From sequence record MH560358: a DNA stretch of 64,000 nucleotides; one strand, 5' to 3'. Positions 35,778 to 64,000 of the stretch are shown piece by piece; positions within the stretch are counted from its first letter, which is position 1, and every line of letters begins with the position of its first letter. Under the pieces are notes generated by a model that was not told the origin of the DNA, ran no database searches, and saw only the letters and a list, made by a program, of their open reading frames with translations. The stretch is from Escherichia virus KFS-EC. Made by a program: the position numbers and the translations under genes.

Positions 35778-36013
35778 GTTATTTTTCCTTCTGGGATATA
35801 GTCGATGATTAAAGAAAATTCATCTTCTGATACATTATAGCTATGTGAGATTGTACCCGTCAAGACCTCAAGATCCGGTGATTTGATATTGCACGGATCG
35901 ATAATCACCGGAACGCCGCAATCTCTCAAAAATAATTTGGCGAAATACGGCACGAGGTCAGTTTCAAACTCTGCTTCTTCCAGCAAACGGGAAATGTTAA
36001 TTTTCAATCTCAT
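35774..36013 (-). CDS. hypothetical protein (79 aa)
   Basis: overlaps 3' end of gene 55; weak SD. Confidence 0.4.
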
Positions 36014-36530
36014 AAAATTGGTCCAGGCTAGGCAATTCCTCGGTCAATACATCTTCAACCTTTGGCGCTTTCGGTTTATTGACCGATTCCTCGTAGTTGT
36101 TGATTTTATCGTAAATGTCCTGTATGAATGCCTCATCAGCAATCTGGCACATATCAGCGTCGCGTTCGTCATATACATGATGCACAAAATATTTGTATTT
36201 TGCGGCTGTCGCTGTTCTCTCTTTTTTAATGCGCTGTACAAAAGCATTAAAGCACGCTTGCGTGATGTAAGCATGAGGATTTTTATACTTTGTCTCGTCA
36301 AAATTAATCAAACCCTTGACCGCCGCTTCGATTCCGTCGTCGATCATTTCTTCGCGCCATGTTTGACTATAACCAGAAAAGTTAAAACGACGTGATAGAT
36401 TTTTAGAGATTTGCATAATTGCTAGGCCGATTTGATCGCTCATTGGAACTTGCCGACCTTCTGCTGCAATTTGTTGTTTCCAACGGCAAATTTCTTCGTA
36501 AAGCTCTTTATTGTTTACATAATCAGACAC
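35997..36530 (-). CDS. 55: late-transcription sigma factor gp55
   Basis: matches T4 gp55 as recalled (YVNNKEL, GLAIM.I...[52 protein letters not shown]); GTG start with GAGGG SD. Confidence 0.9.
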
Positions 36531-36570
36531 TTCGCACCCTCGCTATTATTTAGGAAATAACCCTTTCGGG

Positions 36571-55060: not shown

Positions 55061-55459
55061 TTAAGCCAATCGAGTGAGTTTATAAATTGTTTTAAAGCAT
55101 AGAGCTTTGATATCGTCTAAAACGCTCTGTAACGAGCTATCAACATCATTATAAATCTCACTAGCCATTTGCGTTAACTCTTGCAAATAGGCAATTTCGC
55201 TCATCTCCTTGCGGACGACCAACGTTGGCTGATAACGACCAGTGATCCCAATATTGGTTTCAGTGAAATCATCAACCAATTCTTGCATTTCAAGATAGAA
55301 CTCTTCTAGAGCCTTATGTTTTGCATAAGATCCAGGACCAGTTACTCCAAAATGCGCAGAATGCATATAAGTAACACTCATCAGACATTCACCGATAAAG
55401 CGGTCAACTTTATTAGCTTTCCCCTCTTCGGACGTCTTTAGAAAATCAATGAATTTCAT
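55061..55459 (-). CDS. hypothetical protein (132 aa)
   Basis: internal ATG; overlaps 3' end of the secreted-protein gene. Confidence 0.45.
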   Translation of the reverse strand: MKFIDFLKTSEEGKANKVDRFIGECLMSVTYMHSAHFGVTGPGSYAKHKALEEFYLEMQELVDDFTETNIGITGRYQPTLVVRKEMSEIAYLQELTQMASEIYNDVDSSLQSVLDDIKALCFKTIYKLTRLA

Positions 55460-55748
55460 GTTCTCTATTCTCCATATTATGCAACATAACAAACTGTTGT
55501 GCGGCATATTCCCCCATAATAAAACACTGCTTAGAATCCATACATTTACTACGAGCATACATCTTCATAATATGGGCATGAAATTTCTGGCTGGTTTCAA
55601 TGGAAGGAGATATTTTGTTTACATATACTATCATTGCACCGTCGAAATAATCAGTAAAGTCACCAGTTGGATCATATTGATCAGCACTGACACTTCCGAC
55701 CGCAGTCAAGCATATTGCCGCTGTTAGAGTTTTACGAATAAATGACAT
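55446..55748 (-). CDS. secreted protein (100 aa) with signal peptide
   Basis: MSFIRKTLTAAICLTAVGSVSA signal peptide; GGGGGAA SD; TATAAATA element about 35 nt upstream. Confidence 0.6.
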   Translation of the reverse strand: MSFIRKTLTAAICLTAVGSVSADQYDPTGDFTDYFDGAMIVYVNKISPSIETSQKFHAHIMKMYARSKCMDSKQCFIMGEYAAQQFVMLHNMENREHEIH

Positions 55749-55781: not shown

Positions 55782-55789
55782 TATTTATA
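55782..55789 (-). promoter_or_regulatory. T4 late-promoter-like TATAAATA box inside a 9-bp-stem hairpin
   Basis: exact TATAAATA on minus strand, in loop of CCCCAGATT..AATCTGGGG inverted repeat (about 55757-55798). Confidence 0.35.
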
Positions 55790-59892: not shown

Positions 59893-60591
59893 CTAACCAC
59901 GGGTATAGTGTTCCAGAACAACTGTCAGATGAATATATTCTAATAGATCTTTCCAAAAGTCAACATCTGGTTCTTCCGGCATACCGTTTTTCTTTGCCTC
60001 TTCACGCGCGAGTTTAACACGCTCGTAGAGATCTTTCAATTCTTCCCGCACATTATCAAAGGTTCTTTCTCCTAACTTACACGCTAAAATAGAAGAACGT
60101 CGCTCGAGCGGGAATTGTAGATCACCTGTCTGATAGATTTCAAGTAGCTGATAACCAACACGCAGAGCATGAGAAAGATCTTTCCAGTTACTGAAATACT
60201 TTTCAGATTTAGCTACCTGTTTCTTGAGATAACCAGACAAACCCCACATCCCAACATGATAGAATTTATCGCGATGTGTTCGGATGTATTCCCATTCTCT
60301 GGAGGATTCAATCAACATGTTACTAGGAGCGTGCACCATATCAATAGCGCCGATATCACCTTTACATGCCAGATTGATAAACCGTTTTAGACTGAACATA
60401 TTAACGTCAATGTCGTCTTTGGTGTTCTTGATACCTTGACCGCTAGTGCTTTGGTCATAGTGTTCTTTCATCGATCCTAAGATAATTTCTTTCGCAGTCG
60501 GAACAAAGATACCACGATAATCTTTATCGGAATTTTCAGTATCAAGGCCGTATAAGTGAGATCCGAAAACCATTTTAACCATTGTATGCAT
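59893..60591 (-). CDS. Pol-beta-superfamily nucleotidyltransferase-like protein
   Basis: N-terminal GS...D.D signature (FGSHLYGLDTENSDKDYRG) typical of minimal nucleotidyltransferase fold, followed by helical domain; GAGGG SD. Confidence 0.5.
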   Translation of the reverse strand: MHTMVKMVFGSHLYGLDTENSDKDYRGIFVPTAKEIILGSMKEHYDQSTSGQGIKNTKDDIDVNMFSLKRFINLACKGDIGAIDMVHAPSNMLIESSREWEYIRTHRDKFYHVGMWGLSGYLKKQVAKSEKYFSNWKDLSHALRVGYQLLEIYQTGDLQFPLERRSSILACKLGERTFDNVREELKDLYERVKLAREEAKKNGMPEEPDVDFWKDLLEYIHLTVVLEHYTRG

Positions 60592-60643
60592 AATTAAACC
60601 CTCAGTTGATTAAGAGATTGCATCATATCATCATAAAACGAAA

Positions 60644-60668
60644 AAGCCAACCCTTTTCGGATTGGCTT
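60644..60668 (-). terminator. rho-independent terminator after grcA-like gene
   Basis: AAGCCAA-loop-UUGGCUU hairpin followed by U-rich tract. Confidence 0.55.
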
Positions 60669-60674
60669 AAAAAT

Positions 60675-61091
60675 TTACATTGCTTCCGTAAAGGTGCGCG
60701 AAATAACATCACGTTGTTGGTCTGGAGTCAGACTATTGAATCTTACGGCATATCCGCTAACGCGAATGGTTAGTTGCGGATACTTATCAGGATTAGCAAC
60801 CGCATCAAGAAGAAGATCGCGACTCATCACATTGATATTCGCGTGCTGGCCTCCTTCGACAACCGGAGCACCATTATCTACAATCACCGGACGGAAGCTA
60901 GTTGTGTGCAGTGCCAGCGAATCGACGTCTTCTGCGGTGATCACATGGTCTTCTGCGAAAGTTTTACTAACAATTACTTTAGCGCCGATCAGTGCTTTCG
61001 GTTCGGATACCAGAATCATAGGCGCGAAGTGTCCACCAATAATAGTACCTTTATGCTCACCTTTCATGATTTGAATTGCTTTAAATTCCAT
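60675..61091 (-). CDS. autonomous glycyl radical cofactor (GrcA/YfiD homolog)
   Basis: C-terminus [33 protein letters not shown] nearly identical to the PFL/GrcA glycyl radical motif. Confidence 0.85.
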
Positions 61092-61226
61092 AATTCACCT
61101 CTTATAGATCAGGACGTTCGTCATTAATTTTACCAACCAAAACACCATAGAGTTTATCAGGTTGGATTTTACGATTCTTTTTAATTGTAGCACGAAATCG
61201 ACGAGCTACGCTATCTTTATTTTTCA

Positions 61227-61718
61227 TTAGTTGATACCTAAGCCAATGAAAATAGGTTGGTCTTCTACATTACCCATCCCAACACTAAGTCGATTCAATT
61301 CTAAAAACTGCAATACGCTGTCAGTAAATCCGCGCATGGTAGTATCTAGGATAAAAATTGTTTTGTCAAGACTACGACCTCGCCATGTGATCGGATTCAG
61401 GAAAGTTCGGATAGACGTACAATCTACATTTGAAATATTTACATTTTCACCACGACCGCGATCTCGGATCGTTTTGGCATGTTCCCGCGTTGTTGAAACG
61501 ATAAAGACACTATAGCCTTTTCGCGTATAATGGTCATATAACTTGATTGTAGCGTCTGTATGCCCTGTCTGACGGCCTAAATTGATTGAGACGATGGAAT
61601 CTAGGTCATCAGCAAAATTTCTTCGCTTACGGCGTTCTATGATGCCATTTACGGCAGAAATACACGCAGCATAAATCAAATCTTTACTTTCTAATTCTAA
61701 ATCAATGTCAATATTCAT
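61227..61718 (-). CDS. hypothetical protein (163 aa)
   Basis: ATG with GGAGA SD. Confidence 0.55.
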   Translation of the reverse strand: MNIDIDLELESKDLIYAACISAVNGIIERRKRRNFADDLDSIVSINLGRQTGHTDATIKLYDHYTRKGYSVFIVSTTREHAKTIRDRGRGENVNISNVDCTSIRTFLNPITWRGRSLDKTIFILDTTMRGFTDSVLQFLELNRLSVGMGNVEDQPIFIGLGIN

Positions 61719-61734
61719 GGTAAAGTCTCCAGTG

Positions 61735-61766
61735 AACGGGGAGAGATCCTAGATTGTCTCCCCGTT
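61735..61766 (-). terminator. stem-loop (10-bp stem AACGGGGAGA..TCTCCCCGTT) after peptidase gene
   Basis: strong hairpin; weak U-tract. Confidence 0.4.
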
Positions 61767-61779
61767 GATGGTTAATATT

Positions 61780-62169
61780 TTATTTTGGATCTGGGTATTT
61801 GCTGTGTGGTAGCTGAAAATGAACACCGTCTTTAAACGATACCCAATCCCCACCCCATTCAACAGGAACACCCAATTCTCGACCAGCTTGTTTAAATGCA
61901 TCAGCGATCATGCGGTAGTATTTCATGTTCCATGTATCCTTATCTTTCGGATACGCTACAACGTCAACCGCGAAACCGTGAAGATGACGAGATTTCATAG
62001 TCTTAGATTTACCTTCCGCAACATATTTCTTTTGCGTTTCTAGACTACGCACACCTTCCGTAATGCCAAAATCGACCGGAGTCAGTTCTAATGCACGATG
62101 AACGACTTTTACCAGATCAGGATGCACACCAACAAGCCGATCTTTGCTTCTTTGAGATAATTTAAACAT
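61780..62169 (-). CDS. M15-family peptidoglycan peptidase (L-alanyl-D-glutamate peptidase-like), candidate endolysin
   Basis: zinc-ligand pattern SRHLHGFAVDV ... DGVHFQL typical of VanY/T5-endolysin-type M15 peptidases; AAAGGGGG SD. Confidence 0.65.
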   Translation of the reverse strand: MFKLSQRSKDRLVGVHPDLVKVVHRALELTPVDFGITEGVRSLETQKKYVAEGKSKTMKSRHLHGFAVDVVAYPKDKDTWNMKYYRMIADAFKQAGRELGVPVEWGGDWVSFKDGVHFQLPHSKYPDPK

Positions 62170-62197
62170 TATTCACCCCCTTTGTGAGTGATAATAT

Positions 62198-62389
62198 TTA
62201 GATTCCGGCGATCCTGCATAGAGTTCTTGTATTAGCACCAATCAGGATCGCATTAACGACAACCATTCCCCAATCAACCCACTGATTATTATAAATGCTA
62301 AACCCGTTTGCAAGACCAAATACAAGCATTCCGGTACACATACTCAGAGCAATAATCAACATCACGGTAAAACCAAATGCAAATTTCAT
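62198..62389 (-). CDS. small membrane protein (63 aa)
   Basis: two hydrophobic helices; AAGGA SD. Confidence 0.5.
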   Translation of the reverse strand: MKFAFGFTVMLIIALSMCTGMLVFGLANGFSIYNNQWVDWGMVVVNAILIGANTRTLCRIAGI

Positions 62390-62390
62390 A

Positions 62391-62606
62391 TTATTTTCCT
62401 TTTCTCTGTTTACGTTTATAAAAGTAATACATTACCTCATCACGTCCGGTGATCCAACATGCTATGGCAGTAAACAGGTTTACAATTCCCAACACACCTA
62501 CTGACGCGGCGCTGTCAACAGACATAGGAACAGTAAAGGCCATAGCTAACATAGCAACGCCACAAATGACATTAAGCACCATTATAATAAGACCGAAGAA
62601 AACCAT
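62391..62606 (-). CDS. small membrane protein (71 aa)
   Basis: internal ATG with GGAGGA SD; two hydrophobic helices. Confidence 0.45.
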   Translation of the reverse strand: MVFFGLIIMVLNVICGVAMLAMAFTVPMSVDSAASVGVLGIVNLFTAIACWITGRDEVMYYFYKRKQRKGK

Positions 62607-62608
62607 TG

Positions 62609-62788
62609 TCAATCCTCCGACACAAGAAAACCAACAATCACGCCAGTGATAAGACATGATGCGCCGCTAATCAGACAACCCGCACCAAGTGATTCCCACC
62701 AGATCAGAGAAGCGACAATAACACAGAATCCCCATACTACCGCAATCACAACATAGGCAAGGGTCGCCAAAAACATATATTTGTTCAT
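62609..62788 (-). CDS. small membrane protein (59 aa)
   Basis: ATGA coupling; hydrophobic throughout. Confidence 0.45.
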   Translation of the reverse strand: MNKYMFLATLAYVVIAVVWGFCVIVASLIWWESLGAGCLISGASCLITGVIVGFLVSED

Positions 62789-62973
62789 AATAAATCCCAT
62801 TCACCAATCAAATATGAAAATAGCCAAATAAACAGAAACGAGGCGATTGATCCGGCAAGCAAAATAATATTAGAGAATCCGCTGTTTATCCAGTCAATCA
62901 AACAGAATACACCAGTATAGAAGCATAATCCCATTACAAAGCATACTATAAGCAACCATAGATAAAACGCCAT
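62785..62973 (-). CDS. small membrane protein (62 aa)
   Basis: GGAGGG SD; two hydrophobic helices. Confidence 0.5.
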   Translation of the reverse strand: MAFYLWLLIVCFVMGLCFYTGVFCLIDWINSGFSNIILLAGSIASFLFIWLFSYLIGEWDLL

Positions 62974-63034
62974 AGAAAGCCCTCCAGTGAGCTAATTTAG
63001 TGCGGGTAGTACATTACCCTACCCGCATTGTTAA

Positions 63035-63193
63035 TCATCGCAGAGCGTGTTCTAGCGCGATCCCAAACCATCCACAAACAACGCCCATACAGACAGCTAC
63101 AAGAAGATTCATTCTCTCTTTAGGGATCATTGCAATCATAACAACAACCATACAGAAAGCCATTACCATTGAAGTTAACATTTGTTCAACCAT
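63035..63193 (-). CDS. small membrane protein (52 aa)
   Basis: hand-translated MVEQMLTSMVMAFCMVVVMIAMIPKERMNLLVAVCMGVVCGWFGIALEHALR; AAGGTG SD. Confidence 0.4.
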   Translation of the reverse strand: MVEQMLTSMVMAFCMVVVMIAMIPKERMNLLVAVCMGVVCGWFGIALEHALR

Positions 63194-63195
63194 TA

Positions 63196-63534
63196 TCACA
63201 CCTTTAAAGTCATAGACGCATAAACATTAATGCCAGGCCAGTTAGGATCGCAATTATACTCAACATCCCACAAATAAAGCGGTTTAGATGTATCAGCCAA
63301 GTTTTTAAAATCTTCTACCCACATTTCAAGGCTATATGATGGATAAACTAGGCTATCATATCCGCCGTAACGTTGGCCTACTGGTCGGTCAGTAAAAACT
63401 ACATCAAGATCCGGTAATTCTTTTTCAAGGATAACCGCCAGCGCATAAATCAGACGGTCTTCCTTGTTACGCTGCCGTAGGACCGTTGTCAGTTGGTTTT
63501 TCTGGTTCACTAGCAAGCACCTCCACATTTTCAC
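63196..63534 (-). CDS. hypothetical protein (112 aa; start uncertain, overlaps upstream ORF)
   Basis: GTG/ATG start inside 3' end of 63467-63787; possible frameshift relationship. Confidence 0.35.
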   Translation of the reverse strand: MKMWRCLLVNQKNQLTTVLRQRNKEDRLIYALAVILEKELPDLDVVFTDRPVGQRYGGYDSLVYPSYSLEMWVEDFKNLADTSKPLYLWDVEYNCDPNWPGINVYASMTLKV

Positions 63535-63787
63535 AGAATGAAATTTTCACAGACACAATTTTACCATAAGTGAAGAATGAATATACATTATCGAGATATT
63601 CAACGTCACCTACAATCACATCAAACTGCGGATCAGCCACTGCCGCAACATATTCTACCAGTTCATCAAGAGAATGCAACTTAATTTCATCAATTCGGCT
63701 GTATTTGGTTGCATCTTTGATTTTAAAACCACGTTCTTTCAGCTTATCAATTAGAATTTCACGCGGAGTTTCAAACAGTTTGCTCAT
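63467..63787 (-). CDS. hypothetical protein (106 aa)
   Basis: ATG with GAGGATTATATT RBS. Confidence 0.5.
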   Translation of the reverse strand: MSKLFETPREILIDKLKERGFKIKDATKYSRIDEIKLHSLDELVEYVAAVADPQFDVIVGDVEYLDNVYSFFTYGKIVSVKISFCENVEVLASEPEKPTDNGPTAA

Positions 63788-63808
63788 AATATAATCCTCA
63801 CATTAAAT

Positions 63809-64000
63809 CTAAAATTTGTTAACGACGAATTGCATAATTAGACTAATCACAAACATTGCAAACCAAGTATAAATGCAACAGATAAAAGCTACATACAATT
63901 CAATCTGGTCAGAGAATACACCTGGTAAAAGCATTAGCAAAATAACAACAGTAAAAACGCTAGCGATACCCGCAACAAAACCAATATCATTTTTACTAAT
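63809..64000 (-). CDS. membrane protein, 5'-truncated by window end
   Basis: open frame of hydrophobic residues running from window edge to TAG at 63809-63811. Confidence 0.4.
   Translation of the reverse strand: MSKNDIGFVAGIASVFTVVILLMLLPGVFSDQIELYVAFICCIYTWFAMFVISLIMQFVVNKF

Follow-up and report, generated by a model that had tools for sequence, protein, structure and literature searches.

In phage T4, expression of the e lysozyme is controlled by a late promoter that is embedded in a hairpin occluding the translation-initiation region, and early transcripts yield about 100-fold less lysozyme (PMC3014915). A 2010 review left out RB49 and phi-1, which it lists without gene e ('no apparent gene e') (PMC3014915). 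In RB49, the ortholog of the endolysin discussed here is EndoRB49 (ORF102), with a measured lytic activity of 3205 U/mg (PMC10487532), and the RB49 L-alanyl-D-glutamate peptidase is reported to hydrolyze a synthetic compound that mimics peptidoglycan (PMC8140593). The hyperplastic regions of RB49 and phi1 are presented in passages of PMC2839356 as containing non-essential ORFans that are driven by sigma-70 promoters.

The window analyzed here is a stretch of 64,000 nucleotides from Escherichia virus KFS-EC (MH560358). Its DNA is 97% identical to 57 published genomes and is assigned to Krischvirus (RB49/Phi1/GEC-3S type). All six ORFs of interest, the endolysin gene and five small ORFs designated A to E, were recovered, each on the minus strand (Table 1). 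The gene order in T4 is 1-57A-57B-...-nudE-e-ipIII-ipII-denV-vs.8-vs.7-vs.6 and that in Krischvirus is 1-57A-57B-...-endolysin-vs.8-ORF100-vs.6. Because of this synteny, the endolysin gene is the e-locus gene, which bears out the original prediction of an M15 peptidase at the e-lysozyme position; this placement is already documented in GenBank annotations. The region is the e-locus end of the hyperplastic region of an RB49-like Krischvirus genome. In our overall reading, which we consider reasonably probable, it combines a known endolysin, a late-only leader of the T4 e type and early, genus-restricted small membrane genes that do not serve lysis.

Table 1. Features of the e-locus end of the hyperplastic region in the window (positions count from the first nucleotide of the window).
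Feature	Position	Strand	Description	Basis or remark
Small ORF A (RB49 ORF107)	63035..63193	-	52 aa, 2 TM, conserved IPK(E/D)RMN loop	PHROG 16035
Hairpin between A and B	63002..63026	-	GCGGGTAG / CTACCCGC	Conserved stem, variable loop, no U-tract
Small ORF B (RB49 ORF106)	62785..62973	-	62 aa, 2 TM, zero basic residues	PHROG 19354
Small ORF C (RB49 ORF105)	62609..62788	-	59 aa, 2 TM, conserved WWESLG loop	PHROG 16151
Small ORF D (RB49 ORF104)	62391..62606	-	71 aa, 2 TM and invariant basic tail GRDEVMYYFYKRKQRKGK	PHROG 15232
Small ORF E (RB49 ORF103)	62198..62389	-	63 aa, two hydrophobic segments (one strong, one weak)	PHROG 15016, private family
Late-promoter-like motif	62195..62202	-	TCTAAATA	-33 from ATG, within hairpin 5' arm
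Leader hairpin	62163..62200	-	5' arm 62200-62186 pairs with 3' arm 62178-62163	Predicted translation block on read-through (early) transcripts
Endolysin	61780..62169	-	129-aa EndoRB49-type Zn L-alanoyl-D-glutamate peptidase (MEROPS M15C)	Pfam, structure matches, catalytic residues
Hairpin 3' of endolysin stop	61735..61766	-	Followed by TCACTGGAG, SD of vs.8	Conserved stem, variable loop; dG -19.2, z -2.8
Intrinsic terminator after vs.6	60644..60668	-	10-bp stem and T-run

The endolysin carries the motifs SRHLHGFAVDV and DGVHFQL and matches the Pfam family Peptidase_M15_4 (PF13539) with an E-value of 6.6e-12 (46.3 bits; cut-off 25). All 129 residues are covered by the matches to 8q2g_A (2e-85) and 23ri_A (2.9e-85), two solved EndoRB49-type structures to which the protein is about 98-99% identical, and EndoT5 is matched as well (2mxz_A, 7e-21). 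The Zn ligands H62, D69 and H117, the catalytic D114 and W109 (numbering according to PMC10487532) are all kept, and together with the single-domain organization they are common to EndoRB49, EndoT5 and the window endolysin. Family match, near-identity to solved structures and catalytic residues confirm the T5-endolysin-type M15 zinc peptidase that had been predicted. The protein is a single globular domain from which a signal or SAR sequence is absent. Compared to EndoRB49 it has a few changes near the C-terminus (V110, V116 and F118, corresponding to the ECD7 allele, where RB49 has T, P and L), none of functional note. Judged by its sequence, the ORF is the known and already characterized endolysin of the genus, lytic activity having been measured on the RB49 ortholog.

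The original prediction had named a canonical e lysozyme elsewhere, making this peptidase non-lytic, among the findings that would count against it. A search with T4 e against about 98% of the Phi1 genome and the window gave a sole match, to the gp5 lysozyme domain in Phi1, and none in the window; a free-standing e-like gene was not found. A cytoplasmic L-alanoyl-D-glutamate peptidase has taken the place of the T4 muramidase at the e locus, and would gain access to the cell wall through the canonical T holin.

While the endolysin itself was previously known, the design of its leader is the new element of this analysis. The 3' arm of the leader hairpin contains both the Shine-Dalgarno (SD) sequence of the endolysin (GGGGGUGA) and its AUG (62169-62167). 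The hairpin has a dG of -12.7 kcal/mol (z -2.8), the predicted late RNA only -2.6 to -3.3. The motif TCTAAATA is one mismatch, at position -12, away from the canonical late promoter TATAAATA. Its predicted start site lies near 62189, leaving 4 nt of the 5' arm. In Phi1, the CTAAATA variant likewise precedes the late genes 37, t and 26. The 64-kb window has only two copies on its transcribed strand versus 8.9 expected, both of them just 5' of start codons, namely those of the endolysin gene and gene 55. We infer promoter use and translational occlusion as follows. Transcripts entering from the upstream early promoters would fold the leader, with SD and AUG buried. A gp55-type late promoter within the 5' arm would produce late transcripts that are translatable because the position of the promoter removes that arm. 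Endolysin expression is probably made late-only in this way, by the mechanism of T4 gene e.

The likeness to T4 e extends to several details. The T4 leader has a hairpin that buries SD and AUG, with a promoter motif in the 5' arm at -34 (-33 in the window). The full-length leaders are of similar stability (-15.9 for the endolysin versus -15.1 for T4 e), the predicted late RNA is nearly unstructured in both (-2.8 in T4 e), and in both an upstream stop codon abuts the stem, that of nudE in T4 and that of ORF E in the window. The two differ in that the regulated gene of the window encodes a non-homologous M15 peptidase and not a muramidase, the leader sequences are unrelated, and the endolysin leader has a single promoter motif of the CTAAATA variant, where T4 e has two motifs. 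The modest new point is thus one of regulation: an endolysin not homologous to the T4 enzyme has, at the e locus, a late-promoter-like motif inside a hairpin predicted to occlude its start site, as T4 e does.

Among 18 genomes, the 40-nt leader shows zero base substitutions and just two small indels, and it is unsubstituted in divergent genomes in which the flanking genes are merely 81-91% identical. The hairpin is invariant within the genus and therefore offers no within-genus covariation; its support comes from the analogy to T4 e and from independent designs in other genera. In divergent relatives the hairpin is kept and is stronger (-18.4, z -4.6). An Rfam search of positions 60500-64000 returned zero matches. 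Outside the genus, the M15 endolysin leaders of phages phiP4-3 and KP15 and of contig L060 have different sequences with the same design, while the leader of phage Nando is nearly identical to that of KP15. The design thus recurs on unrelated leaders in at least three other T4-like lineages. That it is shared by different enzymes suggests selection for delayed endolysin translation regardless of the enzyme type.

The UAA stop of ORF E (62200-62198) is the opening triplet of the 5' arm, an arrangement that is invariant in 18 genomes. Ribosomes terminating at this stop might unfold the hairpin, in which case a degree of coupled early translation could occur. A rival explanation builds on this arrangement and sees in it a translational coupling that doses endolysin from read-through mRNA by melting of the hairpin. 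We give it little credence: the nudE stop also abuts the e hairpin in T4, yet early lysozyme is about 100-fold less there (PMC3014915), and early cytoplasmic endolysin would be harmless without a holin, which leaves little selective reason for dosing.

Upstream of the peptidase gene, five small and highly hydrophobic ORFs had been predicted, and these are indeed present (52-71 aa; GRAVY 0.95-1.64). Topology analysis, proposed at the same time, predicts two hydrophobic segments in each of A to E, the second one of E being weak, with loops of 6 to 14 residues. Each ORF is preceded by an SD-like sequence at 4-9 nt, and C starts on the stop codon of B (ATGA). The block is present in the same order in 57 out of 57 Krischvirus records, in which B alone varies, and also in five more divergent metagenomic contigs. 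Within the genus, pN/pS amounts to 0.08 for D, the best conserved of the five, 0.21 for E, 0.22 for C and 0.44 for B; for A, C, D and E, comparison with the divergent contigs gives a dN/dS of 0.14-0.45. ELT4 has a deletion of ORF B, PHB13 a frameshift in it and ECD7 a changed N-terminus, and the ORF is missing from the annotations of W115, E26, JEP8 and PHB13. B is thus dispensable, being deleted or frameshifted in some isolates.

These data bear on the possibility that the small ORFs are nonfunctional filler, having arisen by chance or being genes in decay, in a part of the genome that is plastic. Such a reading would account for the loss or frameshift of B in several isolates and its pN/pS of 0.44, for the four annotations that skip B, and for the lack of homologs of A to E beyond the genus. 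It is nevertheless highly improbable, given that all 18 genomes examined carry intact copies of A, C, D and E, that the substitution ratios range between 0.08 and 0.45, that the polar loop and tail motifs are retained even at dS 0.4-0.7, and that every small ORF has an SD sequence. A to E are real genes: they have good ribosome binding sites, four of them (A, C, D and E) are under purifying selection, and all five occur throughout the genus and in the divergent contigs. Their products are predicted to be genuine, genus-restricted and mostly 2-TM inner-membrane proteins.

The five ORFs do not stand out from their surroundings. Of the 23 RB49 ORFs that lie between 57B and the endolysin gene, 14 encode predicted membrane proteins of 41-74 aa, and A to E account for five of these 14 ORFans. 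This enrichment is absent from the passages of PMC2839356 cited here. Early-type sigma-70 promoters (TTGACA-17-CATAAT) are located upstream of A to E, whereas no late-promoter motif was found between these early promoters and the endolysin leader. The promoters are paired with stem-loop terminators, as in the PeSL regions of RB49 and phi1 described in passages of PMC2839356. Like the PeSL-driven ORFans in those passages, A to E are small, genus-restricted, non-essential-looking and situated in a plastic region between core modules. Unlike them, the A to E block itself contains no PeSL and has an unusually stable order. We infer that A to E are part of a run of 14 ORFans that would be transcribed early from sigma-70 promoters.

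The position of the small ORFs next to the endolysin gene had originally suggested a relocated or alternative lysis cassette. This did not hold up. The T4-type holin t, whose presence elsewhere had been named as a check, was found in 57 out of 57 genomes (Phage_holin_T, Pfam, 4.5e-61). The genus also has an RI antiholin (PF24205, 2e-23), and pseT.3/pseT.2 are annotated as spanins in Phi1 at the T4 positions; therefore no lysis function is missing. Searches of A to E against the holin families of Pfam, PHROGs and NCBIfam gave nothing above noise. A holin-like charged C-terminal tail occurs in D only (KRKQRKGK), while the tails of A, B, C and E are short and neutral or acidic, and this feature is not specific to holins, since T4 Imm has one. 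With 52-71 aa, mostly two TM segments and short loops, A to E do not have a spanin architecture, and no lipobox ([LVI][ASTVI][GAS]C) is present in their sequences. Their assignment as holin, antiholin or spanin components is not supported.

A narrower version would cast at least one of the five, D especially, as a class-II holin, pinholin or antiholin governing the release of the M15 endolysin in an alternative or auxiliary cassette. A to E adjoin the endolysin gene in the same orientation, and their products are small and have two TM segments; the C-terminal tail of D is strongly basic, as is usual for holins, and D gives sub-threshold Pfam matches to two families of holin superfamily III (E 0.029 and 0.92). 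The better of these matches reaches 15 bits where 27 would be required, and the holin-family matches of D fall 12-18 bits under their cut-offs, amid hits to unrelated TM families that are just as weak. Lacking a SAR or signal sequence, the endolysin would not be released by a pinholin, and B is lost in some isolates. In addition, tiny membrane ORFs directly 5' of same-locus M15 endolysin genes were found in none of four other T4-like lineages (Slopekvirus, Pseudotevenvirus, Bragavirus and an IMG/VR T4-like contig). Considering also the complete lysis set elsewhere, the early-type promoters and the absence of a late promoter 5' of A to E, and a leader hairpin predicted to uncouple the endolysin from upstream transcripts, we rejected the lysis-cassette reading and regard such an auxiliary role as quite unlikely.

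Homologs of the small proteins appear to be confined to the genus. Both a word-index search of D against 5.8 billion clusters and an exhaustive HMMER profile search of D against 1.84 billion representatives recovered Krischvirus-type sequences only. A tblastn search with concatenated A to E against 50,697 phage records (E<=1) returned the 57 Krischvirus records and no others, and the family libraries Pfam (searched at E<=10 as well), PHROGs, NCBIfam and PADLOC yielded noise and private PHROGs without an assigned function only. Pairwise comparison of the 14 small membrane ORFs (91 pairs) revealed no paralogy, the best z being 2.7. T4 encodes predicted TM proteins in the same inter-module region, just upstream of nudE-e (e.2, e.3, e.4 and trna.4), which share no similarity with A to E (best E 0.04). 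They are fewer than A to E, and e.2 to e.4 are larger (102-130 aa; trna.4 61 aa).

Membrane immunity factors, the second option of the original prediction, would be the better of the two, since Krischvirus has no detectable homolog of Imm or Sp. When T4 Imm and Sp were compared by blastp with the ORFs of the RB49 region, the best E-value was 1.7, and tblastn against about 98% of Phi1 and the window gave no Imm match and one spurious Sp match inside gene 41. The small ORFs show no similarity to T4 61.4 and imm.1 either. T4 Imm (83 aa, 2 TM, charged C-terminal tail) resembles D and the products of RB49 ORF118 and ORF120 in size, the two TM segments and the charged tail, and early expression is predicted in each case; the sequences show no similarity and the genomic position is different. 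Most likely, A to E each work on their own at the host envelope, ahead of replication; candidate roles are an Imm-like immunity to, or exclusion of, superinfecting phage and an effect on the activity of host membrane proteins. Our best guess is that they are early, dispensable inner-membrane accessory factors, possibly Imm-like, a proposal that draws on architecture, timing and the absence of alternatives.

A bolder and distinctly speculative proposal, which we put forward with considerable doubt, is that the tiny proteins, with D as their core, could constitute the missing immunity or exclusion system of the genus, unrelated early 2-TM proteins standing in functionally for Imm and Sp, and that the endolysin leader could be a portable late-only switch, kept or re-invented at each lysin swap (muramidase versus M15) in T4-type phages. 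The 14 tiny membrane ORFans in one early region, without homologs outside, are in any case compact candidates for phage-host envelope interactions. They belong to a genus that is used in phage therapy, yet has no recognizable Imm or Sp; phi1 was isolated for therapy and GEC-3S has been put forward as a therapeutic candidate.

Further elements accompany the six genes on the same strand. The stem of the hairpin between A and B is nearly invariant, with one base different in W115 (dG -23.2 with flanks, z -3.2), and this hairpin may serve in the processing or stability of the mRNA or else terminate transcription weakly. An internal sigma-70-like site at the C/D junction (62612-62584; 11/12 match) was rejected as probably fortuitous because its -35, spacing and -10 change in divergent relatives. 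The terminator after vs.6 recurs as the same element in RB49, and the annotation of Makalu_003 lists it as a terminator; it likely represents the end of the transcription unit covering the small ORFs and the endolysin gene.

Krischviruses carry a peptidase gene in the place of T4 e. Both the gene (RB49 ORF102) and the five small hydrophobic ORFs of the original prediction (A to E in order of transcription, corresponding to RB49 ORF107 to ORF103) are found on the minus strand, at the predicted coordinates. The 3 kb around them match 57 phage records at 96-98% identity, all of them Krischvirus (RB49, Phi1, JSE, GEC-3S, ECD7, and others). Phi1 and RB49 share the order 3, 1, 57A, 57B, 23 small ORFs (ORF125 to ORF103), ORF102 (endolysin), vs.8, ORF100, vs.6, nrdC.11, regB, vs.1, vs, tk, rI, whereas T4 has the order 1-57A-57B-ipI-tRNAs-e.8..e.2-nudE-e-ipIII-ipII-denV-vs.8-vs.7-vs.6. 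This comparison bears out the predicted e-lysozyme position of the peptidase. The 129-aa product matches Pfam Peptidase_M15_4, as well as ChiX and EndoT5, and its whole length aligns with PDB entries 8q2g_A and 23ri_A (E about 1e-85, 2-3 differences). It has all five residues described for EndoRB49, i.e., the Zn ligands H62, D69, and H117, the catalytic D114, and the conserved W109; lytic activity of EndoRB49 has been reported (PMC10487532). A query with T4 e, run against ~98% of the Phi1 genome and against the window, matched only the gp5 lysozyme domain of Phi1, and RB49 and phi-1 are listed without gene e in a 2010 review of T4 post-transcriptional control (PMC3014915). The enzyme assignment and the locus are correct but were known before, and the region overall is ordinary and for the most part explained.

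The leader between E and the endolysin gene is strongly conserved. Across 18 genomes, positions 62202-62163 (the 28-nt spacer and adjoining bases) show no base substitution and only two small indels, even in contigs with flanking genes that are only 81-91% identical. In the RNA fold, 62200-62186 pairs with 62178-62163 and buries both the SD (GGGGGUGA) and the AUG (dG -12.7 kcal/mol, z -2.8); in the divergent contigs, changes in endolysin codons 3-4 extend the helix (-18.4, z -4.6). The 5' arm contains TCTAAATA (62202-62195) at -33 from the endolysin ATG. A gp55-type start is predicted 6 nt downstream of it, near 62189, and the resulting RNA would keep 4 nt of the 5' arm (-2.6 kcal/mol). T4 e, folded likewise, has TATAAATA at -34 and -21, with -15.1 for the full-length leader and -2.8 for the late RNA, the arrangement behind the T4 e mechanism reviewed in PMC3014915. 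In Phi1, the canonical TATAAATA is found upstream of genes 53, 9, 18, 22, 23, 24, 51, 34, and 36, with the variants TCTAAATA before gene 37, CCTAAATA before holin t, and ACTAAATA before gene 26. In the 64-kb window, exact TATAAATA is depleted (1 observed, upstream of rI, versus 5.8 expected). CTAAATA occurs only twice on the transcribed strand (8.9 +/- 2.9 expected), both times directly upstream of a start codon, namely those of the endolysin and gene 55. Other M15 leaders, of unrelated sequence, share this late-motif-in-stem design: in phiP4-3 and a T4-like contig (L060), an AUG-pairing hairpin has AATAAATA overlapping its 5' arm, while KP15 and Nando place CATAAATA or CGTAAATA inside an outer, SD-pairing stem. 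The promoter role of TCTAAATA and the start-site occlusion are predictions; that a non-homologous endolysin carries a leader of the T4 e type is a minor but testable novelty. The second CTAAATA (36547-36553, minus strand) precedes the GTG start of a 177-aa ORF (35997-36530, minus strand) by 17-23 nt. By position and length, this ORF corresponds to gene 55 (late sigma factor), and the motif may serve late-promoter autoregulation.

The original prediction also suggested that the small ORFs and the endolysin could form a lysis cassette, or else that the small ORFs encode membrane immunity factors. The hydrophilic N-terminus of the peptidase implies the need for a hole-forming holin. Phi1 encodes t after gene 37, besides rI, rIIA/B, and pseT.3/pseT.2, annotated as spanins. 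The t product matches Pfam Phage_holin_T (4.5e-61), the rI product matches the T4-like antiholin family (2e-23), and exactly 57 phage records contain a t homolog with at least 95% identity. The set of lysis functions has no gap for the small ORFs to fill. M15 endolysins are also found at this locus in a 163-kb IMG/VR T4-like contig and in KP15 (Slopekvirus), Nando (Pseudotevenvirus), and phiP4-3 (Bragavirus), with tiny membrane ORFs directly upstream in none of the four; an association limited to one genus counts against a functional unit. Should the leader act like its T4 counterpart, the endolysin would be translationally silent on transcripts bearing A to E, and its late transcript would lack A to E, the opposite of a lysis cassette. 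Ribosomes that terminate on E might melt the hairpin, since the stop codon of E makes up the initial three nucleotides of the 5' arm; T4 e, however, is occluded ~100-fold despite a nudE stop in the same arrangement (PMC3014915). The lysis genes elsewhere, the four lineages without such neighbors and the predicted leader design leave the cassette unsupported.

The small ORFs are real genes. Their products (52, 62, 59, 71, and 63 aa; GRAVY 0.95-1.64) each have two hydrophobic segments, the second one of E being weak. All five ORFs are preceded by an SD-like sequence, B and C overlap in ATGA, and C/D and D/E are separated by 1-2 nt. All 13 isolates that were aligned keep A, C, D, and E intact, and pN/pS is 0.08 (D), 0.21 (E), 0.22 (C), and 0.44 (B). 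This last value, together with a deletion in ELT4, a frameshift in PHB13 and an altered N-terminus in ECD7, indicates that B is dispensable. B is unannotated in several GenBank records. A search with D returned close relatives only, on contigs (L015-L019) of up to 175 kb from more divergent Krischvirus-like phages that keep the A-B-C-D-E-peptidase order. Identity to these contigs is 69-71% (A), 73-81% (C), 79-86% (D), and 84-89% (E); substitutions are hydrophobic and conservative, and the polar motifs IPK(E/D)RMN, WWESLG, CWITGRDEVMYYFYKRKQRKGK, and NGFSIYNNPWVDWG are kept. dN/dS is 0.14-0.45 and dS ranges from 0.1 to 0.9 among adjacent genes, a pattern read as recombinational mosaicism, not as positive selection. 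Concatenated A to E gave no tblastn match (E<=1) beyond the 57 Krischvirus records, a HMMER profile of D, searched exhaustively against 1.84 billion representatives, found no further relatives, and Pfam, NCBIfam, and PADLOC yielded noise only; in PHROGs, each ORF is a separate family of unknown function. Between 57B and the endolysin of RB49, 14 of the 23 ORFs are predicted membrane proteins of 41-74 aa without detectable pairwise similarity, and A to E are not a special set within this region. Predicted membrane ORFs (trna.4, e.4, e.3, e.2) likewise occur in the syntenic part of T4, with no sequence relationship to A to E.

Strong sigma-70 sites (TTGACA-17-CATAAT) precede ORF125, ORF117, ORF116, and ORF113 in RB49, two of the four directly behind stem-loop terminators. 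This layout fits the ‘promoter-early stem-loop’ cassettes with non-essential ORFans that PMC2839356 describes for RB49/phi1 hyperplastic regions. Between 57B and the endolysin leader, the transcribed strand has a single late-type motif (RB49 locus L005, 1873), and transcription from it would not reach the cluster because a terminator intervenes. Given these upstream sigma-70 sites and no late motif reaching the cluster, early transcription is predicted for A to E. From this predicted timing, the hairpin form in the inner membrane, the restriction to one genus, the mosaic exchange, and the loss of B, they are most likely accessory proteins of the inner membrane that act early on the host envelope and can each be dispensed with. 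The most concrete candidate role, proposed by analogy and still rather doubtful, is superinfection immunity or exclusion, since no T4 Imm or Sp homolog is detectable in Krischvirus and D, RB49 ORF118, and RB49 ORF120 share the architecture of T4 Imm (83 aa, 2-TM, charged tail).

Features of the endolysin region and rI (positions in the window)
Feature	Position	Strand	Remarks
rI antiholin	55446-55748	-	33 nt downstream of the sole exact TATAAATA of the window (55782-55789, -)
Intrinsic terminator after vs.6	60668-60644	-	likewise in RB49
Two hairpins	63002-63026 and 61735-61766	-	conserved G+C-rich stems, freely varying loops, without U-tracts
Endolysin	61780-62169	-	M15C, EndoRB49-type
Leader hairpin	62163-62200	-	
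E	62198-62389	-	
D	62391-62606	-	
Sigma-70-like site	62584-62612	-	TTGACA-17-TATTAT, 11/12, straddles D start
C	62609-62788	-	
B	62785-62973	-	
A	63035-63193	-	
RB49 ORF108 and ORF109 equivalents	63196-63534 and 63467-63787	-	conserved soluble ORFs, overlap 44-68 nt
Sixth tiny 2-TM ORF (RB49 ORF110)	63809-64000	-	cut by window end

The sigma-70-like site at D is probably fortuitous, as it is not conserved in divergent relatives. Both hairpins in the table are followed by a TCACTGGAG motif containing the SD of the next gene. Outside the window, RB49 (L005 1873-2160) has TATAAATA where ORF118 ends, and behind it come 280 nt of non-coding sequence with a strong terminator (2031-2052). All Rfam matches there were sub-threshold. 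The element may be a late small RNA, as it lies in an inter-module region whose T4 equivalent has tRNA genes and RNAs C and D.

The ORF108 and ORF109 equivalents evolve far more slowly (98-99% identity) than the neighboring membrane ORFs; in PHB13, the long form has a stop at codon 6, which favors a shorter GTG start at 63510. Further upstream, ORF110, ORF111, and ORF112 form another trio of small membrane ORFs. Shigella phage JK32 (L011 ~1233-1764) carries a perfect 266-bp tandem duplication that runs from the 3' portion of A across the hairpin into the 5' portion of B. It yields a chimeric extra ORF and may have arisen recently or reflect an assembly artefact. JSE (L012 2997-3572) and JK32 (L011) have, at the same place between endolysin and vs.8, an HNH_3 + AP2 homing-endonuclease ORF. 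Their endolysins carry a divergent allele across the last ~26 codons, shared by metagenomic contigs L015-L017 without the endonuclease; in JSE and JK32 it may represent a co-conversion tract.
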